Made by a program: the position numbers and the translations under genes
In this document: in pieces, positions 1,376 to 20,000 of the stretch
How the letters are laid out: each line of letters starts with the position of its first letter
Numbering within the stretch: the stretch's first letter is position 1
IMG/VR virus record: IMGVR_UViG_3300032316_001438
Source: an uncultured virus (IMG/VR IMGVR_UViG_3300032316_001438)
Lineage: Duplodnaviria; Heunggongvirae; Uroviricota; Caudoviricetes
DNA length: 20,000 nt
Strand: one strand, 5' to 3'
Notes under the pieces: model-generated
Told to the model about the DNA's origin: nothing
The model's input: only the letters and a program-made list of their open reading frames with translations
Databases searched by the model: none

Positions 1376-2695
1376 ATGAATGAGGTCAACTTGGGCGAAA
1401 AGCACCCAGTCTTATATGACATGGCGCAGCCTAATTTTTTGGTCAGCCTATTCACCGGTACAGCAAAGAAGGGTACCCAACAAAGGCAGAAAACACCATT
1501 AACTGTTTCAGAGCACAAACTGCTAACCTGTGCCATACACGCGCACTATGCCAGCGTGAGTGAGAACACAACGGGATACTTTGACATACCCTACAGCCGA
1601 ATATTTTCCGAGGCCTCCCTAAGCTCCAGTAACAAGAAAGTGATGGTGGAAAGGATTGCAGAGAGTCTCCACAGTAAGGTCTTGATCATGGACAAGAACG
1701 CCGCCCAGTTATTGTATCAGGATACAAAGCTACAGGGAGCGACCTTCAACATATTCTACGAGGTAAGATACTACTCTTCCTATTTCAGGGTATCACTACA
1801 TCCCAAGTACACAGAGGCCCTTGGCATGCTTCGCACACTTGGATTTACTAAAGGTGACTTTGCCACGCTAATGACATTCAACCATCAGTGGTCTTTTCCT
1901 TTTTACTGGCGAGCTCGCCAATGGCAGCAGCGAAGTAAGACCATACAAGTTCCTTTGGACGAGCTTCGATCGGTGATGTACCTGGACGGAGCTTACAAAG
2001 AATGGAGAGACCTCGACAGGCAGGTACTCAAAGTTTTACAGGAGAAAGAATTCTCCTCCACATGGACCTCGTTTTCTTACAAACCGATTAAAGAAAACCG
2101 GAAAGTAGTTGCCGTGGAACTGACTTTTGATAAAGGGCCGGGTGACGAAAGAGATTTGCCTATCGGGATGGGATACAAGTGGGAGGGAACCATGGACGGA
2201 TACGGGATGATGAAAAACTGTATCCGCAAAATCAGGCACTTTGTTAAGTGCGGTGAGACTCACACAATGGGCTTTGCATGGGATGACGAATACGTGCGCT
2301 TAAGCATGGAGGGGTTTCGCCGCGAGCTGGTAAGAAAGCAATCAAAATCAGGTGCCGCGAAGGTTAATAAGCCAGGGGCATATCTATACATCGGTCTAAT
2401 GAAAGGCTACTGGATATCCTTTGTGAGCGAAGAGAGAGCTCGTAAACAGACAGAATTATTCCAGCAAGGGCCGGTACATATTCCCGCGCAAGGCCAGAGC
2501 GATAGTGACATTGCCATGGACACCGATGTTAAAAATGAGCCTAAGGCCGTAGAGGATCCTCAGCAGGTCATCGATAGCTGGATGAGTCTGTACAAAGATA
2601 TTGTGAAGGAGAACGAAAAGTTGTACCCGACTTTTGAAAAGTTCATGGTTGCCATGGGCCATAAGTTTATTAGTGGTGTGTGGGAGAAAATATAA
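1376..2695 (+). CDS. Plasmid replication initiator protein, Rep_3/RepB-type winged-helix
   Basis: 439 aa with Rep_3-like segments: LTVSEHKLLTCAI, FTKGDFATLMTFNHQWSFPFY, IQVPLDELRSVM and YKEWRDLDRQVLK...FSYKPIKENRKVVAVELTF. Iterons lie upstream. Confidence 0.88.
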   Translation: MNEVNLGEKHPVLYDMAQPNFLVSLFTGTAKKGTQQRQKTPLTVSEHKLLTCAIHAHYASVSENTTGYFDIPYSRIFSEASLSSSNKKVMVERIAESLHSKVLIMDKNAAQLLYQDTKLQGATFNIFYEVRYYSSYFRVSLHPKYTEALGMLRTLGFTKGDFATLMTFNHQWSFPFYWRARQWQQRSKTIQVPLDELRSVMYLDGAYKEWRDLDRQVLKVLQEKEFSSTWTSFSYKPIKENRKVVAVELTFDKGPGDERDLPIGMGYKWEGTMDGYGMMKNCIRKIRHFVKCGETHTMGFAWDDEYVRLSMEGFRRELVRKQSKSGAAKVNKPGAYLYIGLMKGYWISFVSEERARKQTELFQQGPVHIPAQGQSDSDIAMDTDVKNEPKAVEDPQQVIDSWMSLYKDIVKENEKLYPTFEKFMVAMGHKFISGVWEKI

Positions 2696-2699
2696 TCTC

Positions 2700-2732
2700 T
2701 AAACGGTAACCTATAAACGGTAACCTATAAAC
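2700..2732 (+). repeat. 14-bp tandem repeat TAAACGGTAACCTA x2.4 between rep and dnaB
   Basis: Sequence reads taaacggtaaccta taaacggtaaccta taaac. Confidence 0.9.
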
Positions 2733-2742
2733 AGAAAGCTCA

Positions 2743-4191
2743 ATGACATCATTACAGGTTCGAAGTAAGGGTAATCAGAAAGCTGCCCACAAGCGAGAGC
2801 TGGTCGTCATACAAGACATCCCTTCAGGGTTTGGCAAGCTGCCTCCTCAGGCAATCGATCTGGAACAGGCTGTAGTTGGAGCGCTGCTTCTTGAGCGTGA
2901 TGCGCTTACAACTGTAATCTCGTTTTTGAAAGCAGAGCATTTTTATGATTCCAGACATAGCGCGATATATAGCGCTGTGGTGACTTTGTTTCAAAACACT
3001 TCTCCGGTAGACATGCGAACAGTAGTTCATCAGCTTCGAGTCAACGGAACATTGGAGTTTAGCGGAGGTGCCTACTATGTAGCGGAGTTAACAAGCAAAG
3101 TAAGCTCAGCGGCCAATATTGAATACCACGCCCGCATTATCGTGGAGATGGCCATGAAGAGAAACCTTATCACACTCTCATCTCAGCTTACCCAAGACGC
3201 TTACGAGGATAGCGTTGATGTTTTCGAACTATTGGACAAAGTAGAGCAACGGGTATTTGAGATTTGTCAAGCCAACACCAGGGAGGAGACAAAAGCCATG
3301 GCAACGCTGATGAATACCGCTGTGGGATCGATACTATCCAAGATGAAAAACAAAAGCGCCTCCTCCGGGGTGCCCTCAGGGATATTGTCTTTGGATAGAG
3401 TAACCGATGGGTGGCAGGCTTCGGATCTAATTATCATTGCAGCCAGACCGGGTATGGGTAAGAGTGGTCTGGCGGCTACTATTATTAGAAATGCAGCGGT
3501 TGAATTTAATTTGCCGGTAGCTCTTTTTTCTCTTGAAATGTCAAGCCAGCAGGTCGTCAACCGACTAATCAGCATGGAGTCTGAATTAGACGGAGACATA
3601 ATTAAAAAAGGAAACCTGGCCGATTATCAATGGCAGCAGTTAGTGTCTAAGACGAGCCGGTTATCAAACGCCCCGATTTTCATTGATGACACGCCCGCTC
3701 TATCCATCTTGGAGCTAAGAGCAAAATCTAGGAGGCTGAAGGCACAGAATGGCGTGCAGCTAATTATCGTTGACTACTTACAGTTGATGAAGGGCGATAT
3801 GAATGGAAATCGTGAGCAGGAAATCGCCTCCATATCGCGTGCGTTAAAAACCATCGCTAAAGAACTCAGTGTGCCAGTTATAGCGCTATCTCAATTAAGT
3901 AGAGGAGTAGAGACAAGAGGAGGAGACAAGCGTCCGCAGCTTTCGGATCTACGCGAGTCAGGTAGCATTGAACAGGATGCTGACATGGTAATTTTCTTGT
4001 ACCGTCCGGATTACTACAAAATAGATGTAGATGAACAAGGCCTGCCTACGGCAGGGACAGCCGAATTAATTATTGCCAAGCACCGGAACGGAAGTCTGGA
4101 AAATGTCAAGACAAAGTTCATCGGAAAATTCACCAAGTTCGTTGATCTGGAAAAGGACTACAACAAAAGCGACAACTACGATCGCTTTTGA
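2743..4191 (+). CDS. dnaB: Replicative DNA helicase DnaB
   Basis: N-terminal GKLPPQAIDLEQAVVGALL; Walker A AARPGMGKS; FSLEMS; IIVDYLQLM; LSQLSR; DLRESGSIEQDAD; IAKHRNG. Full length, no intein visible. Confidence 0.98.
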   Translation: MTSLQVRSKGNQKAAHKRELVVIQDIPSGFGKLPPQAIDLEQAVVGALLLERDALTTVISFLKAEHFYDSRHSAIYSAVVTLFQNTSPVDMRTVVHQLRVNGTLEFSGGAYYVAELTSKVSSAANIEYHARIIVEMAMKRNLITLSSQLTQDAYEDSVDVFELLDKVEQRVFEICQANTREETKAMATLMNTAVGSILSKMKNKSASSGVPSGILSLDRVTDGWQASDLIIIAARPGMGKSGLAATIIRNAAVEFNLPVALFSLEMSSQQVVNRLISMESELDGDIIKKGNLADYQWQQLVSKTSRLSNAPIFIDDTPALSILELRAKSRRLKAQNGVQLIIVDYLQLMKGDMNGNREQEIASISRALKTIAKELSVPVIALSQLSRGVETRGGDKRPQLSDLRESGSIEQDADMVIFLYRPDYYKIDVDEQGLPTAGTAELIIAKHRNGSLENVKTKFIGKFTKFVDLEKDYNKSDNYDRF

Positions 4192-6248: not shown

Positions 6249-6992
6249 ATGTATCTAAAACAAAAATCGTATCTAAGATTAAAGAGGATACTACTGATGT
6301 CTACCTTTTTGGTGATGGCGTTGGTGAGCTCTGTGAATGCCCAATTTTTAATTGGTGCGCAGACGGGCGTAAACCTAAATCAGTTTACCATGCCCGGTAC
6401 AACGATAGGAATTAATGCGGGCGCTTTCGGATCATACAAGTTCCTGCCTTTCCTCAGTGCACGCATTGAAATCATGTACTCTCAGGAAGGTGGCGGAAGG
6501 CAGAACTATAGTTTCCCATTGGCCGGTGGTTCTATGCTTCCCGATCTCAGGACGAGTATTCTCGCACTTAACTACATTAATCCATACGTGTACATACACA
6601 ACCTGCATGTACCTCTGATGGTGGAGTTAACGCTGCCTGAATTTGACCAGGCATCCGTCGCGCCTAAGCTACTACTTGGCGGAAGCTATAGCTATATGAT
6701 CAGCGCCAACGAGATGCACACCAAGCAGTACACATTTACTGACGGCACATTTGCCAACGTCCCTTATTTGACTGAGGTAGTAACGGCCGACTATGTGGCC
6801 AGCCAAATAAGTATTTTGGCGGGCTTGGGTCTGGATTTTAAAGGAGAAAAAAGAAATTTCTCTTTTGACATTCGCTACCGGCAAGGGCTTACCCAGTTAA
6901 ATAACATCAAAGAGTCTTTCTCTTTCAAAGATGGAAGGCTGTTCTCCTCAACTTTAAGTTTTAATTTCTCCATGTCTATTTTCAAATTTTAA
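6249..6992 (+). CDS. Outer-membrane beta-barrel protein (porin family/OMP_b-brl_2-like)
   Basis: Signal peptide ending VNA-Q; alternating beta-strands; EIMYSQEGG, LHVPLMVEL and FDIRYRQGL motifs; C-terminal Phe. The start could instead be at 6297. Confidence 0.85.
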   Translation: MYLKQKSYLRLKRILLMSTFLVMALVSSVNAQFLIGAQTGVNLNQFTMPGTTIGINAGAFGSYKFLPFLSARIEIMYSQEGGGRQNYSFPLAGGSMLPDLRTSILALNYINPYVYIHNLHVPLMVELTLPEFDQASVAPKLLLGGSYSYMISANEMHTKQYTFTDGTFANVPYLTEVVTADYVASQISILAGLGLDFKGEKRNFSFDIRYRQGLTQLNNIKESFSFKDGRLFSSTLSFNFSMSIFKF

Positions 6993-7005
6993 ACTCAAAC
7001 AAACT

Positions 7006-9297
7006 ATGAAACAATTTAGTAAATATTTTGCGCTGCTGGCCATTGTCGCCTTTGTGGTAATTGCCTGCCAGGACAACTTTAGTGAAGCCGATTTTGTAGC
7101 TAGTCAGCTAAAAAACCGAAACAAGCAAGATAGCATAGCTATCGCCAAACAAATTGAGGGTCTCAATGCTGCAGGGCAATTGCTATCTTACACCCTGCAA
7201 GTGCTGGATGATAAATTGCCTGTGTCCGGTGTGGCGGTGGTTATGTCTAACCCACCTCCAGGTTCCACCACTTCTACATTGACAGCCACTACGGATGCGA
7301 ATGGTTTTGCTACATTTAAAAATGTACAAATTGGTGCCAATACATTTATCGTCAGCAAGACAGGATACTATTCAGCTACGTTTATTGTTGACTTTGGGAC
7401 TCCTACGAATGCCGTCCACTATCAAGTAGTTAACAACAATGGTATACAAACGATATTACCTATCAAAAAAACAGCTTCTAATCAAGTGCCTATTTTTGCA
7501 TCGGCGGCAGGTGGCGCTACTGCTATTATCAGAGGGAATGTGACCATCGAATCTGATCTAACAAACACCACCGCTGAAATACCTCAAAACATCACCATCA
7601 AGGCCAATCTGACAGGTATTGGTGGTGGTTTTGGAGGTAACGCTGGCTCTACTGCGGAAGGCGGTTCAAGCCCATCCTCAATTAGGGGTTATTTCTTTAA
7701 CACCAATGCGATTGGAACGGCAACAGTAGATAACCTGACTGGTGCATACAGCATGGTGGTACCTGCCGGTGCAGATGGTAGAACGCTAACCTTGATCATA
7801 CCCACGGTGAGCCTTAACCAAAAGATAGGCTTCAACAGATTGAATGGACAACCAGTAGCAACCCAGATAGGCACTATACCAGCAGTCTTTGGCCCAGTTT
7901 CTTTAGCCGGGAATTATGATAACATCCCACAGGTGCTGGGGGCAATCGCAACATTCCCAGCACCGCCAGCGCCGGGCAGTGGATTTAAGTTTGCCTACAC
8001 CGCAGTTCCAAGGGGATTACCAACAACTCTTCCAACTAATCAAGGTCTTCAATTTACATCAGGCAATATCACAGCTCAGCTAACCAACAAAGGATCTGGA
8101 TATAGTGCGTCACCGACAGTTACAATAACTGGAGGAGGGGCCAGTACTCAAGCAACTGCAAATACAACGCTTCAAGGAATTGCTACAGGTATTACCATTA
8201 CAGCCGCAGGAACTGGTTACTCAGGTACAGTGAGTTATCAATTACAGCAGTCTACCGATGGTGGGGCTACGTTTAATAACGTCTCTTCGGTGGCGTTTAC
8301 CAGAGACGCTGGAAATACACCGGCTCCACTTTCAGCCCCAACTTTACCCACCACGGGAGCTGGTTTTGTAGCGAGCAACGCATTTGGGACTCTTGCAGGT
8401 GTGACTAACTTCCGATGGTTAATTACCAATACATCTCCTTTCGGAGCAAATCCTGCGGGCAGTGGTGCAACAGCTTCTGCTACTGTTTCCGCAACTGTAG
8501 ATCGCGTTCAAATACTTACCCCAGGAACCGGATACACCTCAGCTCCAACTATCACAATCTCTGCGCCTACTAGCGGCACAACGGCTACGTTTGTGATTCA
8601 AGAGTTTCAAACGCAATGGAATATTGCCCTAGACAACTCAGCGAATACGTCACCCTACAGAGTAATGCCTGCCGGAATAAATATGGTATTCAGCTACCTT
8701 ACTTCAGGAACACAAGCAATAAATGCTGTTGTTGATCAATTCGGAAATGGGACTTCAGCTGTATTTGGTACGCTAACTGTTTCAGGTGGTAATATCGTAT
8801 TTCAAGACCCGTCTAGAACTTATCAGACAAGTGGATTCTCTCAAAATCCGCCAAGCACAGTTGTAATACCATCTGTATCAACACAAGCATCTGCATCAGT
8901 ATCGGTAAACAGTATTTTAGGAAATGCAGCTTTTGGTCAAGTTACTGCGCTTACAAATGTTAATTCTGGCGCAGGATATGACGTGCCTGTCACAGTAACT
9001 ATTTCTGCACCCGCAGGCCTGTCAGGCACAGGTGCGAGGATAGACCTATCCACTTTTATGAATTTTGACAACAATACTAAGGAGTACAAATGGAATGGAA
9101 CGCCGGGAACAATTACAAACCCTGGCAGTGGTTATCAACCATTTTTGAATATGTACTACGTTAACAACTTCAACGGAAACCCGCAAATTAATGCAGTACA
9201 ATTTACTGGAACTACCAGCTACACTGTACGAACAGGTGATGTAGTATCTGCAGATATTGTTTACGGCACAGGTAGAAAAGCACAAAACGTAAACTAA
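7006..9297 (+). CDS. Large Thr/Gly/Ala/Ser-rich surface lipoprotein with GxGY-PTVTI repeats
   Basis: Lipoprotein signal MKQFSKYFALLAIVAFVVIA-C; prealbumin/carboxypeptidase-regulatory-like segment (PVSGVAV...TTDANGFATF...VSKTGY); repeats GSGYSASPTVTITG, GTGYTSAPTITISAP and GAGYDVPVTVTISAP. Starts 13 bp after the OMP gene. Confidence 0.85.
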   Translation: MKQFSKYFALLAIVAFVVIACQDNFSEADFVASQLKNRNKQDSIAIAKQIEGLNAAGQLLSYTLQVLDDKLPVSGVAVVMSNPPPGSTTSTLTATTDANGFATFKNVQIGANTFIVSKTGYYSATFIVDFGTPTNAVHYQVVNNNGIQTILPIKKTASNQVPIFASAAGGATAIIRGNVTIESDLTNTTAEIPQNITIKANLTGIGGGFGGNAGSTAEGGSSPSSIRGYFFNTNAIGTATVDNLTGAYSMVVPAGADGRTLTLIIPTVSLNQKIGFNRLNGQPVATQIGTIPAVFGPVSLAGNYDNIPQVLGAIATFPAPPAPGSGFKFAYTAVPRGLPTTLPTNQGLQFTSGNITAQLTNKGSGYSASPTVTITGGGASTQATANTTLQGIATGITITAAGTGYSGTVSYQLQQSTDGGATFNNVSSVAFTRDAGNTPAPLSAPTLPTTGAGFVASNAFGTLAGVTNFRWLITNTSPFGANPAGSGATASATVSATVDRVQILTPGTGYTSAPTITISAPTSGTTATFVIQEFQTQWNIALDNSANTSPYRVMPAGINMVFSYLTSGTQAINAVVDQFGNGTSAVFGTLTVSGGNIVFQDPSRTYQTSGFSQNPPSTVVIPSVSTQASASVSVNSILGNAAFGQVTALTNVNSGAGYDVPVTVTISAPAGLSGTGARIDLSTFMNFDNNTKEYKWNGTPGTITNPGSGYQPFLNMYYVNNFNGNPQINAVQFTGTTSYTVRTGDVVSADIVYGTGRKAQNVN

Positions 9298-15709: not shown

Positions 15710-16011
15710 TATTTTTCGTGGGGGAAAGAATCTACAGCGCTAGAAATTTCTTTGAGCGTCTGCTTGGCCGCATCAGTAAGCAAACCCTCCTCATTCATAC
15801 CGGTAAGGTCAGCCTGCGCACAGCGAGCGGCGGTAAGGAGTTTTTTGAATCCTTCTAAAGGGATAACGACAGACCTTTTTGAATTAGAGTAGACTTCAGG
15901 AATCATACTCTCAGCCAACTTCAAAGACGATCCAGAGAAAGAGTGTGTAGTTTCACTGTTTTTTGATGGCTTGTACAAGATCACAACGGGGATGTGAGTA
16001 GTTTCGGACAT
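15706..16011 (-). CDS. Hypothetical protein
   Basis: 101-aa ORF, first gene of the leftward cluster, with an AT-rich leader. Confidence 0.7.
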   Translation of the reverse strand: MSETTHIPVVILYKPSKNSETTHSFSGSSLKLAESMIPEVYSNSKRSVVIPLEGFKKLLTAARCAQADLTGMNEEGLLTDAAKQTLKEISSAVDSFPHEKY

Positions 16012-16418
16012 AGAATTGATTATTTACAATAGATTGATTTCCAAAAGTTACTGAGCCATTTCTCCACCTCTTTTTTAGAGCCAATTATTACAGGGCATGG
16101 CTGACCCAGGTAAGGCACAGCAACCATCTTTGGGAACCCAACGCAAAACCTACTAGGAGTGTCGATTTTTAACATAGTAACCTGATAGTTGAACAAGAGT
16201 ATAGAGCCAACTCACCGACCGTCCGAGTGGACTAGGTGGCCTGGGGATAGTAGGATGGGTAGGTAAATTCCGCGAGGCTAACCATGATAGGGATATGAAC
16301 GCAGTGATAAACATCCTCACTGTCGGCTCGGGATATAAAGCCTTAACGAAACGAGTTCTCCTGCCTGAAGGCGGAAGGGTATGGAAAAGTAGGTTGTACT
16401 TATTATTTTTGAGTAGAA

Positions 16419-17714
16419 ATGATAAAAGAGATACTTTTTTTGATTGCGATGCTCACCATTTCTTTGAGTGGGACAGGGCAGGATGTTGATCAATCTAAGG
16501 TTGACTCATTGGAGAGTTTGATAAAGCTTAAAAGTGGCACTGAAAAATATGATGCCATTTTAGCGCTTATGCGTGTCAAACTGAAATATGATCCTATAGC
16601 CACTTTAGAGTTATCTCATCTGGCGGAAAGAGTTGCATTAAAGATTGGAGATAGCCTTAGAATAGTAAAAGCATGGTTCGCAAGAGGATATGTATATAAA
16701 AATTTAGACTCCTTAAGCCAGTCCATCCGAGTTCTTGAGCAGGGCTTATCAATCGCTAAAAGAAATCATTACAATGAAGAACTGTCAAAGATATTAAACT
16801 CATTAGCGATTGTGCATACAAAAACTGGAAATATCGATAAGGCGCTAGAGATTCACTTTCAATCCATTGGCCTGAACGAACAAGTAGGGAACAAAGAAGA
16901 TTTGGGTATTACCTATAATAATATTGGCGTTTGTTATTTTAAACTAAAAGATTTTGAAAACGCATTGAAATATTATAAAAAATCAATTGAGGTGAAAAAG
17001 GAAATTGCAGATGAATTTGATTTGGGCAGATTACTAGTCAATACGGCACTGTGCTACACTCAGCTAAAGCGCTTTAAAGAAGCAGAAGATAAAATTAATG
17101 AAGCTATAACTAGCTGTAAAAGCGATTGCTCTCTACTAATAATGGAAGCTGAATTAGCCTTAGGGATTGCAGCCTATGGTCAAAAACGAAAAAAAGAAGC
17201 TATTTATCATTTTGAATCATCGCTGGCAATGGCAAGAAAGATGAATGATAAAGACTATCAAGTTGAAAATTTATGGAATTTAGCCTTGGCGTTTTCAGAT
17301 GAGAAAAATACTGATGACGCGTTGCGTTTGGTCAGAGAAGCAGAAAGGATAGCAACAGAGATCAATTTAACAAACTCATTAATTTTGATTTATAAGTTGT
17401 CTTCTAGAATTTATAAATCCAAAAATGATTTACAAAAAGCCTTTTTATACCTATCAAAGTACACTAAAATAAACGACAGTATTTACAGTATCAATTTTAT
17501 AAAAAACATATCCCGAGTTGAAGCCAATTTTGCTCAAGGCGATAAGCTCAAAGAAATCGAAGAAAAAACAAAATTGGCGCAATCACTTCAACGGGTGATC
17601 GATTCGCAAAAAAAGATGATCATGCTTATAGTACTGATAGAATTACTTTCCATTGGTGGGTTAATATATCTGTTTATACAAAACAGAAGACTTACCAGTA
17701 AGATGGTAAGTTAG
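16419..17714 (+). CDS. Tetratricopeptide-repeat protein with signal peptide and C-terminal membrane anchor; no kinase domain
   Basis: Signal peptide ending SGTG-Q; TPRs such as TYNNIGVCYFKLKDFENALKYYKKSIE; DSIYS pre-TM motif; TM MIMLIVLIELLSIGGLIYLFI followed by only 11 residues. Confidence 0.9.
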   Translation: MIKEILFLIAMLTISLSGTGQDVDQSKVDSLESLIKLKSGTEKYDAILALMRVKLKYDPIATLELSHLAERVALKIGDSLRIVKAWFARGYVYKNLDSLSQSIRVLEQGLSIAKRNHYNEELSKILNSLAIVHTKTGNIDKALEIHFQSIGLNEQVGNKEDLGITYNNIGVCYFKLKDFENALKYYKKSIEVKKEIADEFDLGRLLVNTALCYTQLKRFKEAEDKINEAITSCKSDCSLLIMEAELALGIAAYGQKRKKEAIYHFESSLAMARKMNDKDYQVENLWNLALAFSDEKNTDDALRLVREAERIATEINLTNSLILIYKLSSRIYKSKNDLQKAFLYLSKYTKINDSIYSINFIKNISRVEANFAQGDKLKEIEEKTKLAQSLQRVIDSQKKMIMLIVLIELLSIGGLIYLFIQNRRLTSKMVS

Positions 17715-17808
17715 TAGAACCACCCATCTACGTAGTTCACCATAAAGAGGCACTGGAGAAAATACCATTAGTAATTCGATATTTTGTTCAAAGAGATCGT
17801 AAACTGAT

Positions 17809-19797
17809 TTAACTCAAGGTCTTAGGTATCGTAACCTGGAAGATGGTTGGTGATGCTGCTTTATGAACTTCTATTCGAACACCAATTCGCTCGGCAGCCA
17901 GCTTGGCGTGAAACAGTCCTAACCCATTGCCACCGTTTTCGTTAGCGATATAAAATACATCGAATACGAGGTCTTTTAAGGACTCATTTATTCCAAGTCC
18001 GTTATCTTCTATCCTAACAACTATTTCATTTGAAGAACTTAGTATGGAAGTCACAGAGATATAAGGAGCGGAACATTTAGCGTTAAAATAGCGATACGAA
18101 TTATTTATTAGCTGATTGAAAATAAGCTGTAAACAGCTACGGTCACCTATGACTTGGTTTGCTTTTTCTTCGAAAGTAGATGACCATTTAATGGTAGGGA
18201 ATGCACCAAGATGCTTGTTTTCGTTTCTAGCTTTAATAATGATCTGACTAAGTGTTATATCTGTCGGCTCAAGAGGCGCGTTGAGGAGAGTATTAATGGT
18301 GATTAACTGTGTTAAGGTATCGTTCAGCTTTTTAGCCGTGATGGTAATCTTGTCAATGATATCTGTAGTTACCGGATTGGTGACATCAATTTTAGCGATG
18401 TTGGTCAGCCCAAGTAGGGTGGCGAGTGGACCCCGTATGTTATGCGATAGACGGTAAATGAAAGTATCCAAGTCCCTTCTGCTTACAGTCAATTGTTCGT
18501 TGCTTTTTACGAGCTCTTCGGTTCTTTTAGCAACAGTAGTTTCTAATAGCTGAGAGTAGTTATTTTTGATTTTGTACCGTGCGTACACGAAATAAAGAAC
18601 CAGGCCAGTTAATACTAATACAGCAGCTAAAAGATACAAGATGGTAGTTCTATTGCTGATCTCAGAATCCTTTTTGGAAATCACAATGTCTGCGATATCT
18701 TTCTGCTCCTGGATGCTAACCTCCTTGAGGGTTGACACTAGTTCTTCGCGGAAGATACTGTCTTTGAGTGTTTCATAAATCTTTCTTTTTTCGATACTCT
18801 TTTCATAGCGATTAGTTTTCTCATAAATGTCAGCCCAAAGGCCGGCATTGTTTTTTCGTCGCTCCAGCGATTGAGATTGAACAGCGTACTCTTCACTCTC
18901 ATCCAGATAGGAAAGTGCTTTATCATAGTCAGAAGAAACATCCGCAATTTTGGCGAGGTAAAAAGTGATTGTAGATAGCGGCAGAAGTGCACGGATATTT
19001 TTTGCCTGGTCGAAACTTACAAAGAGTTTTGATTCTGATTGAACAAGTTCTCCTTTATTGAAAAGGACTATGCCTAGGTTATAGTTGATGTCTAGCTTCA
19101 TTTTGTCACTGCAGATATCCGGATATTGCGCGCAGATTTTCTCGGCGTCATTGAATAGTGTCACGGTTTGATCTATATTCCCCTTACGACTATAACATAA
19201 ACCTAAATTGATAGTTGAAGCGACCAAAAATTCCTTGCCATCAGGCAACTCAACAAGTTCTATAATGCTTCGCTCCAGATAGGGGATGGCCTCGTTAATT
19301 GCATCAAGCTTGTAGTAGGTGTAGCCAATGTTGCAAAGGCCGATACCTAGGTCAATGGCGCTATTTTGTTTCTTTGCCGAGCCTATCGTTATAAGAAAAT
19401 AATGAAGTGCCGAATCAAGGTTAGATAGTTCCTGATAGGTGACCCCAATCACATTACTAAGGTGGGTTACCCATTCTTCGTTCTGTTGCTCTTTCGCCAG
19501 GGCTAATCCTTTCTTTAGGAAATGAATGGAACTAGACCGATCGTTTTTCTGACCATATATCCAGCCAAGCGCATTATGAAATTTGATGTTTAATAGCGAG
19601 CTCTGGTTAGTAGACTTGATCCCTTTTTGCACTACAAATAGTGCGGAATCAAGATTTACAGTTCTTAAAGCCTTGTATTTTTCATAGTAGAGACTATCTG
19701 ATATCCTCTGACTATAGATGTTGCTTCCCGGTGCTAGCGCAAGGCAAAGAACCGTTAGCCAGCGGAATACTAGAAATATAGCTATTTTTGTACTCAT
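17809..19797 (-). CDS. TPR-containing membrane sensor histidine kinase (TPR-TM-HisKA-HATPase_c)
   Basis: TPR repeats; TM ILYLLAAVLVLTGLVLYFVY; H-box FIYRLSHNIRGPL; N-box IFNQLINNS; G1 EDNGLGI; G2 GNGLGL. First ATG is at 19797 (the ORF track extends to 19815). Confidence 0.93.
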   Translation of the reverse strand: MSTKIAIFLVFRWLTVLCLALAPGSNIYSQRISDSLYYEKYKALRTVNLDSALFVVQKGIKSTNQSSLLNIKFHNALGWIYGQKNDRSSSIHFLKKGLALAKEQQNEEWVTHLSNVIGVTYQELSNLDSALHYFLITIGSAKKQNSAIDLGIGLCNIGYTYYKLDAINEAIPYLERSIIELVELPDGKEFLVASTINLGLCYSRKGNIDQTVTLFNDAEKICAQYPDICSDKMKLDINYNLGIVLFNKGELVQSESKLFVSFDQAKNIRALLPLSTITFYLAKIADVSSDYDKALSYLDESEEYAVQSQSLERRKNNAGLWADIYEKTNRYEKSIEKRKIYETLKDSIFREELVSTLKEVSIQEQKDIADIVISKKDSEISNRTTILYLLAAVLVLTGLVLYFVYARYKIKNNYSQLLETTVAKRTEELVKSNEQLTVSRRDLDTFIYRLSHNIRGPLATLLGLTNIAKIDVTNPVTTDIIDKITITAKKLNDTLTQLITINTLLNAPLEPTDITLSQIIIKARNENKHLGAFPTIKWSSTFEEKANQVIGDRSCLQLIFNQLINNSYRYFNAKCSAPYISVTSILSSSNEIVVRIEDNGLGINESLKDLVFDVFYIANENGGNGLGLFHAKLAAERIGVRIEVHKAASPTIFQVTIPKTLS

Positions 19798-19820
19798 TAT
19801 TAACCAAAAAACCAACTATT

Positions 19821-19949
19821 ATGAAAAGAAAAATTTTAGTACCCGTACTGGCTATCCTTCTGACAGCAGTTTTATTAACATCCTGCACCAAAGAGGAGGT
19901 GAAGCCTAAAGCGGAGGGTGGCGTTGCTGCTGTGAGAGACAAAATATAA
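19821..19949 (+). CDS. 42-aa small lipoprotein/lipopeptide precursor (not in the ORF track)
   Basis: MKRKILVPVLAILLTAVLLTS-CTKEEVKPKAEGGVAAVRDKI*: basic n-region, hydrophobic h-region, lipobox LTSC, AT-rich leader with A at -3. Confidence 0.85.
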   Translation: MKRKILVPVLAILLTAVLLTSCTKEEVKPKAEGGVAAVRDKI

Positions 19950-19990
19950 CCAAATTAATTAATTACAAACAAATCTAAACAACAAAAATT

Positions 19991-20000
19991 ATGAAAAGAA
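19991..20000 (+). CDS. Start of a probable second tandem ORF (MKR...), truncated by the window edge
   Basis: attATGAAAAGAA at 19988-20000 is identical to 19818-19830 and has a similar A/C-rich leader. Confidence 0.55.

Follow-up and report, generated by a model that had tools for sequence, protein, structure and literature searches.

Among described systems, those closest to the locus analyzed here are the RRNPP pairs of Firmicutes (Rap-Phr, NprR-NprX, PlcR-PapR, PrgX and Rgg), where the gene for a secreted peptide lies beside that of a receptor built of tetratricopeptide repeats (TPRs) and the peptides diversify by lineage, and the proteobacterial pairs NlpE-CpxA, QseG-QseE and RcsF-IgaA, where an outer-membrane lipoprotein passes information to the periplasmic part of a sensor. 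QseG and its kinase are encoded together, and NlpE and RcsF report on lipoprotein or outer-membrane trafficking. Membrane-anchored peptides of fewer than 70 amino acids (aa), namely MgrB and SafA with PhoQ, also act on the periplasmic side of a kinase. Bacteroidota have very many TPR sensor kinases, for which we know of no described signal, and to our knowledge no peptide signalling has been described in that phylum. Here we analyze a 20,000-nucleotide stretch of DNA catalogued as an uncultured virus of the Caudoviricetes (IMG/VR record IMGVR_UViG_3300032316_001438; the whole stretch is called "the window" below), at whose right-hand end a gene for a 42-aa predicted lipoprotein stands head-to-head with the gene of a sensor histidine kinase whose extracytoplasmic part is a predicted TPR array. 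Peptide/TPR-receptor pairs and lipoprotein/kinase pairs are known and their combination is not; the listings and abstracts of the full-text literature, which for the most part leave out subscription journals, yielded no description of small lipoprotein genes paired with TPR kinases in Bacteroidota. We argue that a functional link between the peptide and the TPR sensor is very likely, and that the two form a lipopeptide and periplasmic TPR-sensor module in which the mature peptide would be the direct cognate partner of the TPR domain, a reading to which we give a probability of about 0.5.

RRNPP receptors are cytoplasmic and their peptides are re-imported, whereas here the predicted location of the TPR region is the periplasm, a kinase is fused to it, and the peptide is a lipoprotein with a constant mature part and a varying signal peptide, in another phylum. 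Because its TPR region lies between a signal peptide and a membrane segment, is kinase-fused and comes with no helix-turn-helix (HTH) domain, the window module is not a member of RRNPP and at most "works like" one. The RRNPP_detector survey covers Firmicutes only (PMC10075063). The lipoproteins NlpE, QseG and RcsF are folded proteins of 130–240 aa without homology to the present ones and their kinases have no TPRs, whereas the partner here would be a peptide of about 21 aa that carries an export signal of the Bacteroidota type; their reporting on trafficking resembles one possible use of the module, that of a sentinel acting in cis. MgrB and SafA differ in being anchored by transmembrane (TM) segments, unlipidated and not encoded beside their kinase, and no TPR is involved. 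Porphyromonas gingivalis FimS, from the same phylum, shares the combination of a periplasmic TPR region and a kinase. The NCBIfam model of FimS is the best TPR-region match of both TPR proteins of the window, but the scores (48 bits for the kinase and 86.8 bits for a kinase-less protein) are so far under the cut-off of 600 that neither is an orthologue. We know of no partner peptide for FimS.

The genes in question are the following:

19821..19949, plus strand: small lipoprotein gene 1 (42 aa); signal peptide 19821-19883, Cys codon 19884-19886, mature part CTKEEVKPKAEGGVAAVRDKI 19884-19946, stop codon 19947-19949
19991..20000, plus strand: start of small lipoprotein gene 2 (ATGAAAAGAA...), truncated by the window end, with the same 13 nucleotides around its ATG as gene 1
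17809..19797, minus strand: sensor histidine kinase, 662 aa; signal peptide/first TM segment at residues 5-23, about eight TPRs at about 25-330, a long helix, second TM segment at 386-404, H-box SHNIRGP (H452) and HATPase_c
16419..17714, plus strand: kinase-less TPR sensor, 431 aa, convergent with the kinase; signal peptide, TPR array, TM segment at 401-419 and a 12-aa cytoplasmic tail

The open reading frame (ORF) of gene 1, MKRKILVPVLAILLTAVLLTSCTKEEVKPKAEGGVAAVRDKI, begins with the ATG at 19821, and its whole product is made up of the signal peptide MKRKILVPVLAILLTAVLLTSC followed by the mature part TKEEVKPKAEGGVAAVRDKI. It has the charged n-region (MKRK), the hydrophobic h-region (residues 5-23, Kyte-Doolittle 2.42) and the lipobox with Cys at +1 (L-T-S-C) that mark lipoproteins, so the predicted cut before Cys22 leaves 21 residues; lipidation and cleavage by signal peptidase II would be expected of such a sequence. 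The 13-nucleotide sequence ATTATGAAAAGAA at 19818-19830 recurs at 19988-20000, which places a second ATG at 19991, 170 nucleotides past the first, with only 10 nucleotides of gene 2 inside the window. Protein tables record on a 182,251-bp contig a 42-aa paralogue that begins MKRR (P0004), the window peptide (P0007) and the window kinase (P0011), and gene 2 is probably such a paralogue of gene 1. An earlier note on this DNA, made by a model from the letters alone, had described a 42-aa lipobox ORF with a 21-aa mature peptide, a second ORF start with an identical 13-nucleotide surround 170 bp on, and the divergence of both from a TPR kinase; all three descriptions hold at these coordinates.

The start codons of the kinase and of peptide gene 1 are separated by 23 nucleotides, head-to-head. 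The kinase has a His box, an HATPase_c domain (47 bits, cut-off 26.4) and a membrane sensor domain with TPR_1, TPR_2, TPR_8 and TPR_12 matches above the Pfam cut-offs, as expected of a two-component kinase; its HisKA score (21 bits) lies under the cut-off of 26.9, and H452 of the SHNIRGP box is invariant across an alignment of 31 kinases. It contains exactly two hydrophobic segments, at residues 5-23 and 386-404, with Arg and Lys residues after the second. Membrane segments are oriented by the positive-inside rule, and since the two segments flank the TPR array and the basic residues follow the second, the array should face the periplasm. Neither the scanned ORFs of the window nor the conserved metG site described below yielded a Response_reg domain, and the window kinase would accordingly be an orphan without a cognate response regulator nearby. 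Its orthologues in the clade of the window are 82–83% identical to it, and the next nearest kinases only about 27%.

The 431-aa protein is 31% identical to the sensor region of the kinase over 157 aa. Its homologues of 433–443 aa are 91%, 51% and 49% identical, and the nearest full-length kinases (724–732 aa) are 53–58% identical to it. Recorded together on a 144,516-bp contig are two peptides, an 83% identical kinase and the 49% homologue of the 431-aa protein; an 11,192-bp contig carries one peptide and the 91% homologue, and three different peptide paralogues are recorded on a 3,091-bp contig and two on one of 2,745 bp. Though indirect, this evidence indicates a conserved cluster of tandem peptide genes, kinase and kinase-less sensor, in which the 431-aa protein may be a decoy or co-receptor. 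Its gene lies within the span of the earlier note and was not described there.

How regularly such kinases have small lipoprotein genes beside them was first judged starting from the kinase. The 31-kinase alignment matched 614 stretches, of which 489 encode a relative; taking the 80 best leaves 77 separate loci, whose kinases are 24–40% identical to that of the window and come from Cytophagales records, e.g. Cyclobacteriaceae, Fulvivirga, Ohtaekwangia and Chryseolinea. With a strict lipobox pattern, divergent small lipoprotein ORFs came out upstream of 73 of 114 kinase-like ORFs; most of the remaining cases had a gene with a lipobox such as I-N-A-C, outside that pattern, which was then relaxed. 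The permissive scan, for lipoprotein ORFs of 30–65 aa with an acidic motif after the Cys, found 111 small lipoprotein ORFs in 72 of the 77 loci. Every one of the 111 lies upstream of a TPR-kinase-like ORF on the divergent strand, 109 of them no more than 1.5 kb away; no such ORF was found anywhere else in the 908,361 bases, and such upstream zones account for 18.5% of that sequence. Among the five loci without a peptide gene, four have less than 340 bp of upstream sequence and one (L017) has 960 bp. Beside the best-scoring kinase there is one peptide gene in 55 loci, two in 15, three in 1, four in 1 and none in those 5, and the median gap from start codon to start codon is 213 bp, an approximate value as the first ATG was taken for the kinase start. 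The earlier note had made its case depend on homologous kinases having small lipoprotein genes as neighbours, and with 72 of 77 loci, always in the divergent-upstream position, they do.

The gene metG follows the kinase in 61 of the 77 loci, and bioB, sppA, pth, the L25 gene and prs recur around it, so most of these loci are a single orthologous chromosomal site; for this reason the very small binomial probability calculated from the locus counts overstates the evidence. Independent contexts number about six: the metG site, second and third modules with peptides of the ...DPCQWGCK type, the plasmid-like cluster of the window, a metagenome contig (L145), a locus with a kinase of another class (L113), and cassettes of the Fulvivirga marina record. 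The subtype ...DPCQ[W/F]G(GP)GC(K), which has two Cys residues 3–6 residues apart, suggesting a disulfide loop, was seen at L002, L005, L007-L011, L016, L033, L035, L045, L073 and L075, and is part of a second kinase module, which lies in tandem with the first one. Several peptide arrays are closed by an ORF of about 50 aa with a signal peptide and no lipobox Cys (L145 1808-1960, plus strand; L032 5099-5254, L039 4970-5128 and L069 4985-5143, minus strand), e.g. ...SGFTLQDKDQF and ...GVTLEDNKF.

The peptides form a recognizable family. Among 105 distinct sequences the signal peptides are 18–20 residues long and the mature parts 11–33 (median 24), beginning C-[T/S/A]-[E/D/K]-[E/D]-x-[V/I]-x-P and continuing into a Gly-rich, lineage-specific tail. 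Two or three acidic residues come after the T/S/A, positions that the search motif partly imposed (+3 is E/D in 101 and +4 in 98 of the 105); V/I at +6 (103 of 105) and P at +8 (102 of 105) were not imposed by it. Gly makes up 23% of the tails, which are poor in hydrophobic residues and have a median net charge of -3; 79 of the 105 contain GG and 17 contain two or more Cys. In the clade of the window there are ten other 42-aa homologues; all 11 have that length, and their mature part is invariant except for one V/L and the terminal I/L, while the signal peptide varies and the kinases are only 82–83% identical. Codons were compared between tandem copies of equal length with mature identity of at least 85% (19 of 30 pairs, and 3 pairs of L140), a filter that itself pushes non-synonymous counts down, and the differences are:

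Mature part: 515 codons, 119 synonymous and 7 non-synonymous differences
Signal peptide: 404 codons, 84 synonymous and 81 non-synonymous differences

Tandem copies in L013 and L018 differ silently at 14 of 23 and 13 of 23 mature codons, respectively, with no amino acid change. The many silent changes between tandem copies rule out gene conversion and a non-coding element, and on this comparison the frame is translated and the mature peptide is what selection keeps. The idea that the window ORF is a chance frame without product might draw on its shortness, its absence from the ORF track and its lack of family annotation; given the codon pattern, a position kept in 72 of 77 loci with no occurrence elsewhere, and a length of 42 aa kept in all 11 close homologues, it is already refuted as far as sequence tells.

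The start of the mature peptide resembles a known targeting signal. The optimal lipoprotein export signal of Capnocytophaga is C-X-K-(D/E)2-X (Lauber et al. 2016, PMC5080379), and C-T-K-E-E-V of the window fits it exactly, as the earlier note had said of its K-(D/E)2; the C-T-E-E-E of the wider family resembles the SDDDD and SDDFE signals of Bacteroides and Flavobacterium given in the same paper. By analogy the mature peptide would be exposed at the surface. The carriers of such signals described there are large enzymes and SusD-like proteins, whereas here the mature protein is little more than the signal and about 13 further residues.

The association was also approached from the peptide, with a profile built from a 121-row alignment in which the Cys is invariant in 121 of 121 rows, 102 of these being locus rows chosen by a motif that requires it. 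In an even sample of 401 genomes of the phylum it matched 21 at E <= 1e-5, mostly in signal peptides of long lipoproteins. True small ORFs were present in 6 of the 401, and all six adjoin a divergent TPR kinase; one more case in that sample, of 59 aa beside a weak TPR match, is ambiguous. At E <= 1e-9 the profile was found in at least 8 of 301 genomes of the order and at least 32 of 201 of the family, both lower bounds because only some of the first-look candidates were scored. Of the family-level peptide matches 20 were examined, and a kinase lies alongside in all 20 (13 new loci and 7 identical to earlier ones).

These searches also brought out other TPR partners. On the metagenome contig L145 a TPR sensor is encoded head-to-head, at 59 bp, with a tandem pair of peptides, CTKEEVKPKADGLGSGMRDKI and CTEEEVKPKADGLGSGMRDKI; the peptides are identical to that of the window at 15 of 21 residues and link its K-E-E type to the commoner E-E-E type. 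In L113 the peptide gene is read in the same direction as the gene after it, which encodes a TPR kinase of the HisKA_2 class, and a LytTR response regulator follows. The Fulvivirga marina record contains many lipoproteins of about 50 aa that start C-Q-E-E-E-[I/V]-x-P, and in 4 of 6 loci examined there an intact lipoprotein of about 444–505 aa is encoded after the peptide gene, in the same orientation. Three of these that were scanned (450–505 aa) matched TPR families only in Pfam, and the fourth (444 aa) matched a kinase profile weakly; in the other 2 of the 6 loci the genes beside the peptides resemble fragments of TPR lipoproteins. Since similar peptides pair with HisKA kinases, with a HisKA_2 kinase and with kinase-less TPR lipoproteins, the common partner of these peptides is, on sequence grounds, the TPR domain. 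The Fulvivirga marina loci (L108-L112 and L114) are cassettes in variable regions, in which genes for a 50-aa C-Q-E-E-E lipoprotein and a TPR lipoprotein recur with an XRE-type HTH gene and two conserved ORFs (about 94 and about 104 aa); some of the TPR genes in them look split.

This constancy bears on a rival explanation, that the peptide genes are only an output of the kinase pathway, its targets through a shared divergent promoter region, with the lipopeptide acting at the surface (as coat, in adhesion, as vesicle cargo or in protection) without touching the TPR region. Divergent pairs of a regulator and its target are common, and two to four tandem copies with identical mature peptides suggest selection for dosage. 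A surface role is also what the export-signal-like motif would predict (PMC5080379). But peptides of the same type also accompany kinase-less TPR lipoproteins and a TPR kinase from a different class, and because a kinase-less TPR protein alone cannot regulate transcription, the constant partner is the TPR domain and not a transcriptional output. The predicted sensor fold, which is of the peptide-wrapping type, likewise argues against it, and we consider this explanation rather unlikely.

The sensor region of the kinase (residues 25-384) was modelled with AlphaFold2 from a 47-row alignment, with a predicted local distance difference test score (pLDDT) of 92.5 and a predicted template-modelling score (pTM) of 0.84. 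The model has 16 helices that form a superhelical solenoid of eight TPRs, followed by a long helix toward the membrane. Its best matches in the PDB are the TPR domains of the eukaryotic proteins LGN/Pins with bound peptides (of NuMA, Inscuteable or Frmpd), which are eight-TPR superhelices as well (template-modelling scores 0.74–0.76 over about 330 columns, root-mean-square deviation about 3.2 Å); with only 14–15% identity this is an analogy of fold and not evidence of ancestry. Consensus TPR designs come next, and then the Rap/NprR pheromone receptors of the RRNPP group (about 0.58). The earlier note had supposed a TPR array of the peptide-binding type, and the predicted superhelix agrees with it in resembling LGN/Pins and then Rap/NprR. 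Such a fold would suit peptide binding, though TPR folds are generic.

We suggest that the module, in this lineage of the Cytophagales, consists of 1–4 tandem tiny lipoprotein genes and an inner-membrane sensor with a periplasmic eight-repeat TPR superhelix, mostly fused to a histidine kinase. Signal peptidase II would cut the precursor to a lipid-anchored peptide of 19–33 residues, which as an extended chain could lie in the concave channel of the TPR array, and occupancy of the channel would set the activity of the kinase toward an unlinked response regulator. In the window the module comprises two or more peptide genes, the gene of the 662-aa kinase and, as a third part, that of a paralogous TPR receptor without a kinase. 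The lipidation and location of the peptide, its binding and the direction of its effect are what we infer from these comparisons. Acting in cis, the kinase could monitor the peptide on its way to the surface and so serve as an envelope or lipoprotein-export sentinel; acting in trans, the peptide would be a signal shed from one cell and read by another. We lean slightly toward the former, mainly because the principal module occurs once per genome as a core locus with housekeeping genes around it; tails that differ by lineage, multi-copy cassettes and surface-type TPR lipoproteins leave room for a role in trans.

Several observations weigh against direct recognition of the peptide by the TPR domain. 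Peptide-receptor covariation, a check that the earlier note had proposed, did not single out the sensor: in Mantel and partial Mantel tests on 83 pairs, tail distance correlates with sensor distance (r = 0.588) no better than with that of the catalytic domain (r = 0.590), both partial correlations are about 0.32, and the pattern is that expected from co-inheritance alone; it also counts in favour of the peptides as mere output. The peptides of the window and L145, identical at 15 of 21 positions, adjoin sensors only 21% identical; the 431-aa protein of the window is closer to the L145 sensor (30% identity over the whole length, E 5e-64) than the window kinase is. A working export signal of the kind described for Capnocytophaga (PMC5080379) would, by analogy, carry the peptide out to the cell surface and so part it from a TPR array in the periplasm, a conflict that the earlier note had left aside. 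The divergent arrangement is also that of a regulator and its target gene, and neither the window nor the conserved metG site has a response regulator. Finally, the single orthologous site behind most of the 77 loci makes the independent associations far fewer than the loci, and the identity filter flatters the codon counts.

The earlier note had gone further, comparing the system with RRNPP quorum sensing and proposing the tail after GG (VAAVRDKI) as a possible ligand. As a whole its reading survives in part: the pairing of kinase and peptide, the match to the export signal and the peptide-type TPR fold stand; binding of the peptide to the TPR array, release of the tail after GG and quorum sensing specifically are conjecture. 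A diffusible pheromone, either the lipopeptide or a cleaved tail, would be released, enter the periplasm of neighbours and activate the kinase according to cell density. Consistent with this, the tails differ by lineage and even by module within a genome (L008 has both ...TTDGSTETQKV and ...DPCQWGCK), one genome has many paralogous peptide-plus-TPR cassettes, the modelled sensor is structurally like Rap/NprR, and 17 of the 105 tails have at least two Cys. But GG, though present in 79 of 105 tails, is not at a fixed position; no conserved processing protease or exporter, of the C39 type or other, and no modifying enzyme lies beside the module, its neighbours at the main site being housekeeping genes such as metG, bioB, sppA and pth; once released, an acidic peptide of 2–3 kDa would still need to pass the outer membrane; and most genomes have the main module once, as a core locus, four of five genomes searched having only one or two true small-ORF matches each. 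A density pheromone is thus unlikely. We entertain only tentatively, and think it on balance doubtful, the broader proposition that these are the first peptide-based signalling systems of Bacteroidota, in which a lipopeptide is read by a periplasmic TPR-superhelix kinase as an extracytoplasmic counterpart of RRNPP, with lineage-specific tails as private channels, kinase-less TPR proteins as decoys or surface receptors, and plasmid-borne copies, like that of the window, that spread the pair horizontally.

Database classification of the peptides speaks to two further explanations. No Pfam family matches the window peptide, and in NCBIfam it reaches at most 21.2 bits where the cut-off is 60; 18 other peptides of the family reach no Pfam or NCBIfam cut-off and all their matches cover the signal peptide, and the curated small-lipoprotein families (PG1828, LptM, entericidin and "LsoB small effector") stay below their cut-offs. 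"LsoB small effector" (21 bits against 60) was rejected as a signal-peptide resemblance, and among the 18 others recurs only in P0050 (16.7 bits), a close relative of the window clade, and in none of 14 locus peptides. The peptides could be membrane-active mini-lipoproteins like entericidin A/B or the colicin lysis proteins, their expression controlled by the kinase: size and tandem layout recall the entericidins, and the nearest named clusters of a protein atlas are indeed entericidin and colicin lysis protein, at scores of 0.76–0.77 that are at best at chance level (atlas scores reached at most 0.82, under the level of a lead). With tails that are hydrophilic (the Gly content and charge given above) and not amphipathic helices, and with no family match above cut-off, this is very improbable. 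Still less credible is a modified ribosomal peptide precursor with a double-glycine leader, to which the frequent GG and weak matches to a precursor model (15–16 bits, cut-off 40) might point; those matches span the signal peptide only, the N-terminus is a lipoprotein signal peptide and not the N-terminal GG leader of such peptides or bacteriocins, and neither a modifying enzyme nor a C39 peptidase transporter is encoded in the window or in the conserved neighbourhoods.

A conserved and strongly selected partner of about 20 residues encoded beside the sensor is a concrete candidate ligand, which makes the question of what TPR kinases sense directly testable. Should it act in cis, the module would be a Bacteroidota counterpart of NlpE/RcsF-type monitoring, for the surface-lipoprotein export specific to this phylum. 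The locus also illustrates that ORFs of fewer than 50 aa, which gene callers miss, can be the most conserved part of a locus.

Expression signals of the window genes were sought in the form of TAnnTTTG, the -7 promoter motif of Bacteroidota, and two matches lie near peptide gene 1:

19783..19790, plus strand: promoter-motif match TATTTTTG, which fits TAnnTTTG, 31 nucleotides before the peptide ATG and within the first kinase codons
19970..19977, minus strand: promoter-motif match TAGATTTG (TAnnTTTG), oriented as the kinase gene and placed between the two peptide genes

If TAGATTTG were the kinase promoter, the 5' leader of the kinase would run antisense across peptide gene 1, and the placement of the motifs may cause mutual transcription interference between that gene and the kinase. 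The motif precedes only 9 of the 111 related peptide genes, against a background of 2.6%, and was dropped as general evidence of expression.

A degenerate DNA pattern for EEVKPKAEGGV, which does match the window, found nothing in genome, metagenome and viral collections, and a plasmid database had no match to the window by DNA or by protein. Rfam gave nothing at gathering score in the whole window or in 15900-16450, where there were two weak, chance-level matches; the non-coding stretch at 16200-16400, which directly precedes the gene of the kinase-less TPR protein, seems to have a higher G+C content than its flanks. At 1376-4191 on the plus strand, genes for a Rep3_C initiator-like protein and a DnaB helicase adjoin, which suggests that the window is part of a plasmid or other replicon-like element. 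Farther along the same strand, at 6249-9297, the gene of an OMP_b-brl_2 outer-membrane barrel (247 aa) adjoins that of a 763-aa protein with a CarboxypepD_reg-like domain.

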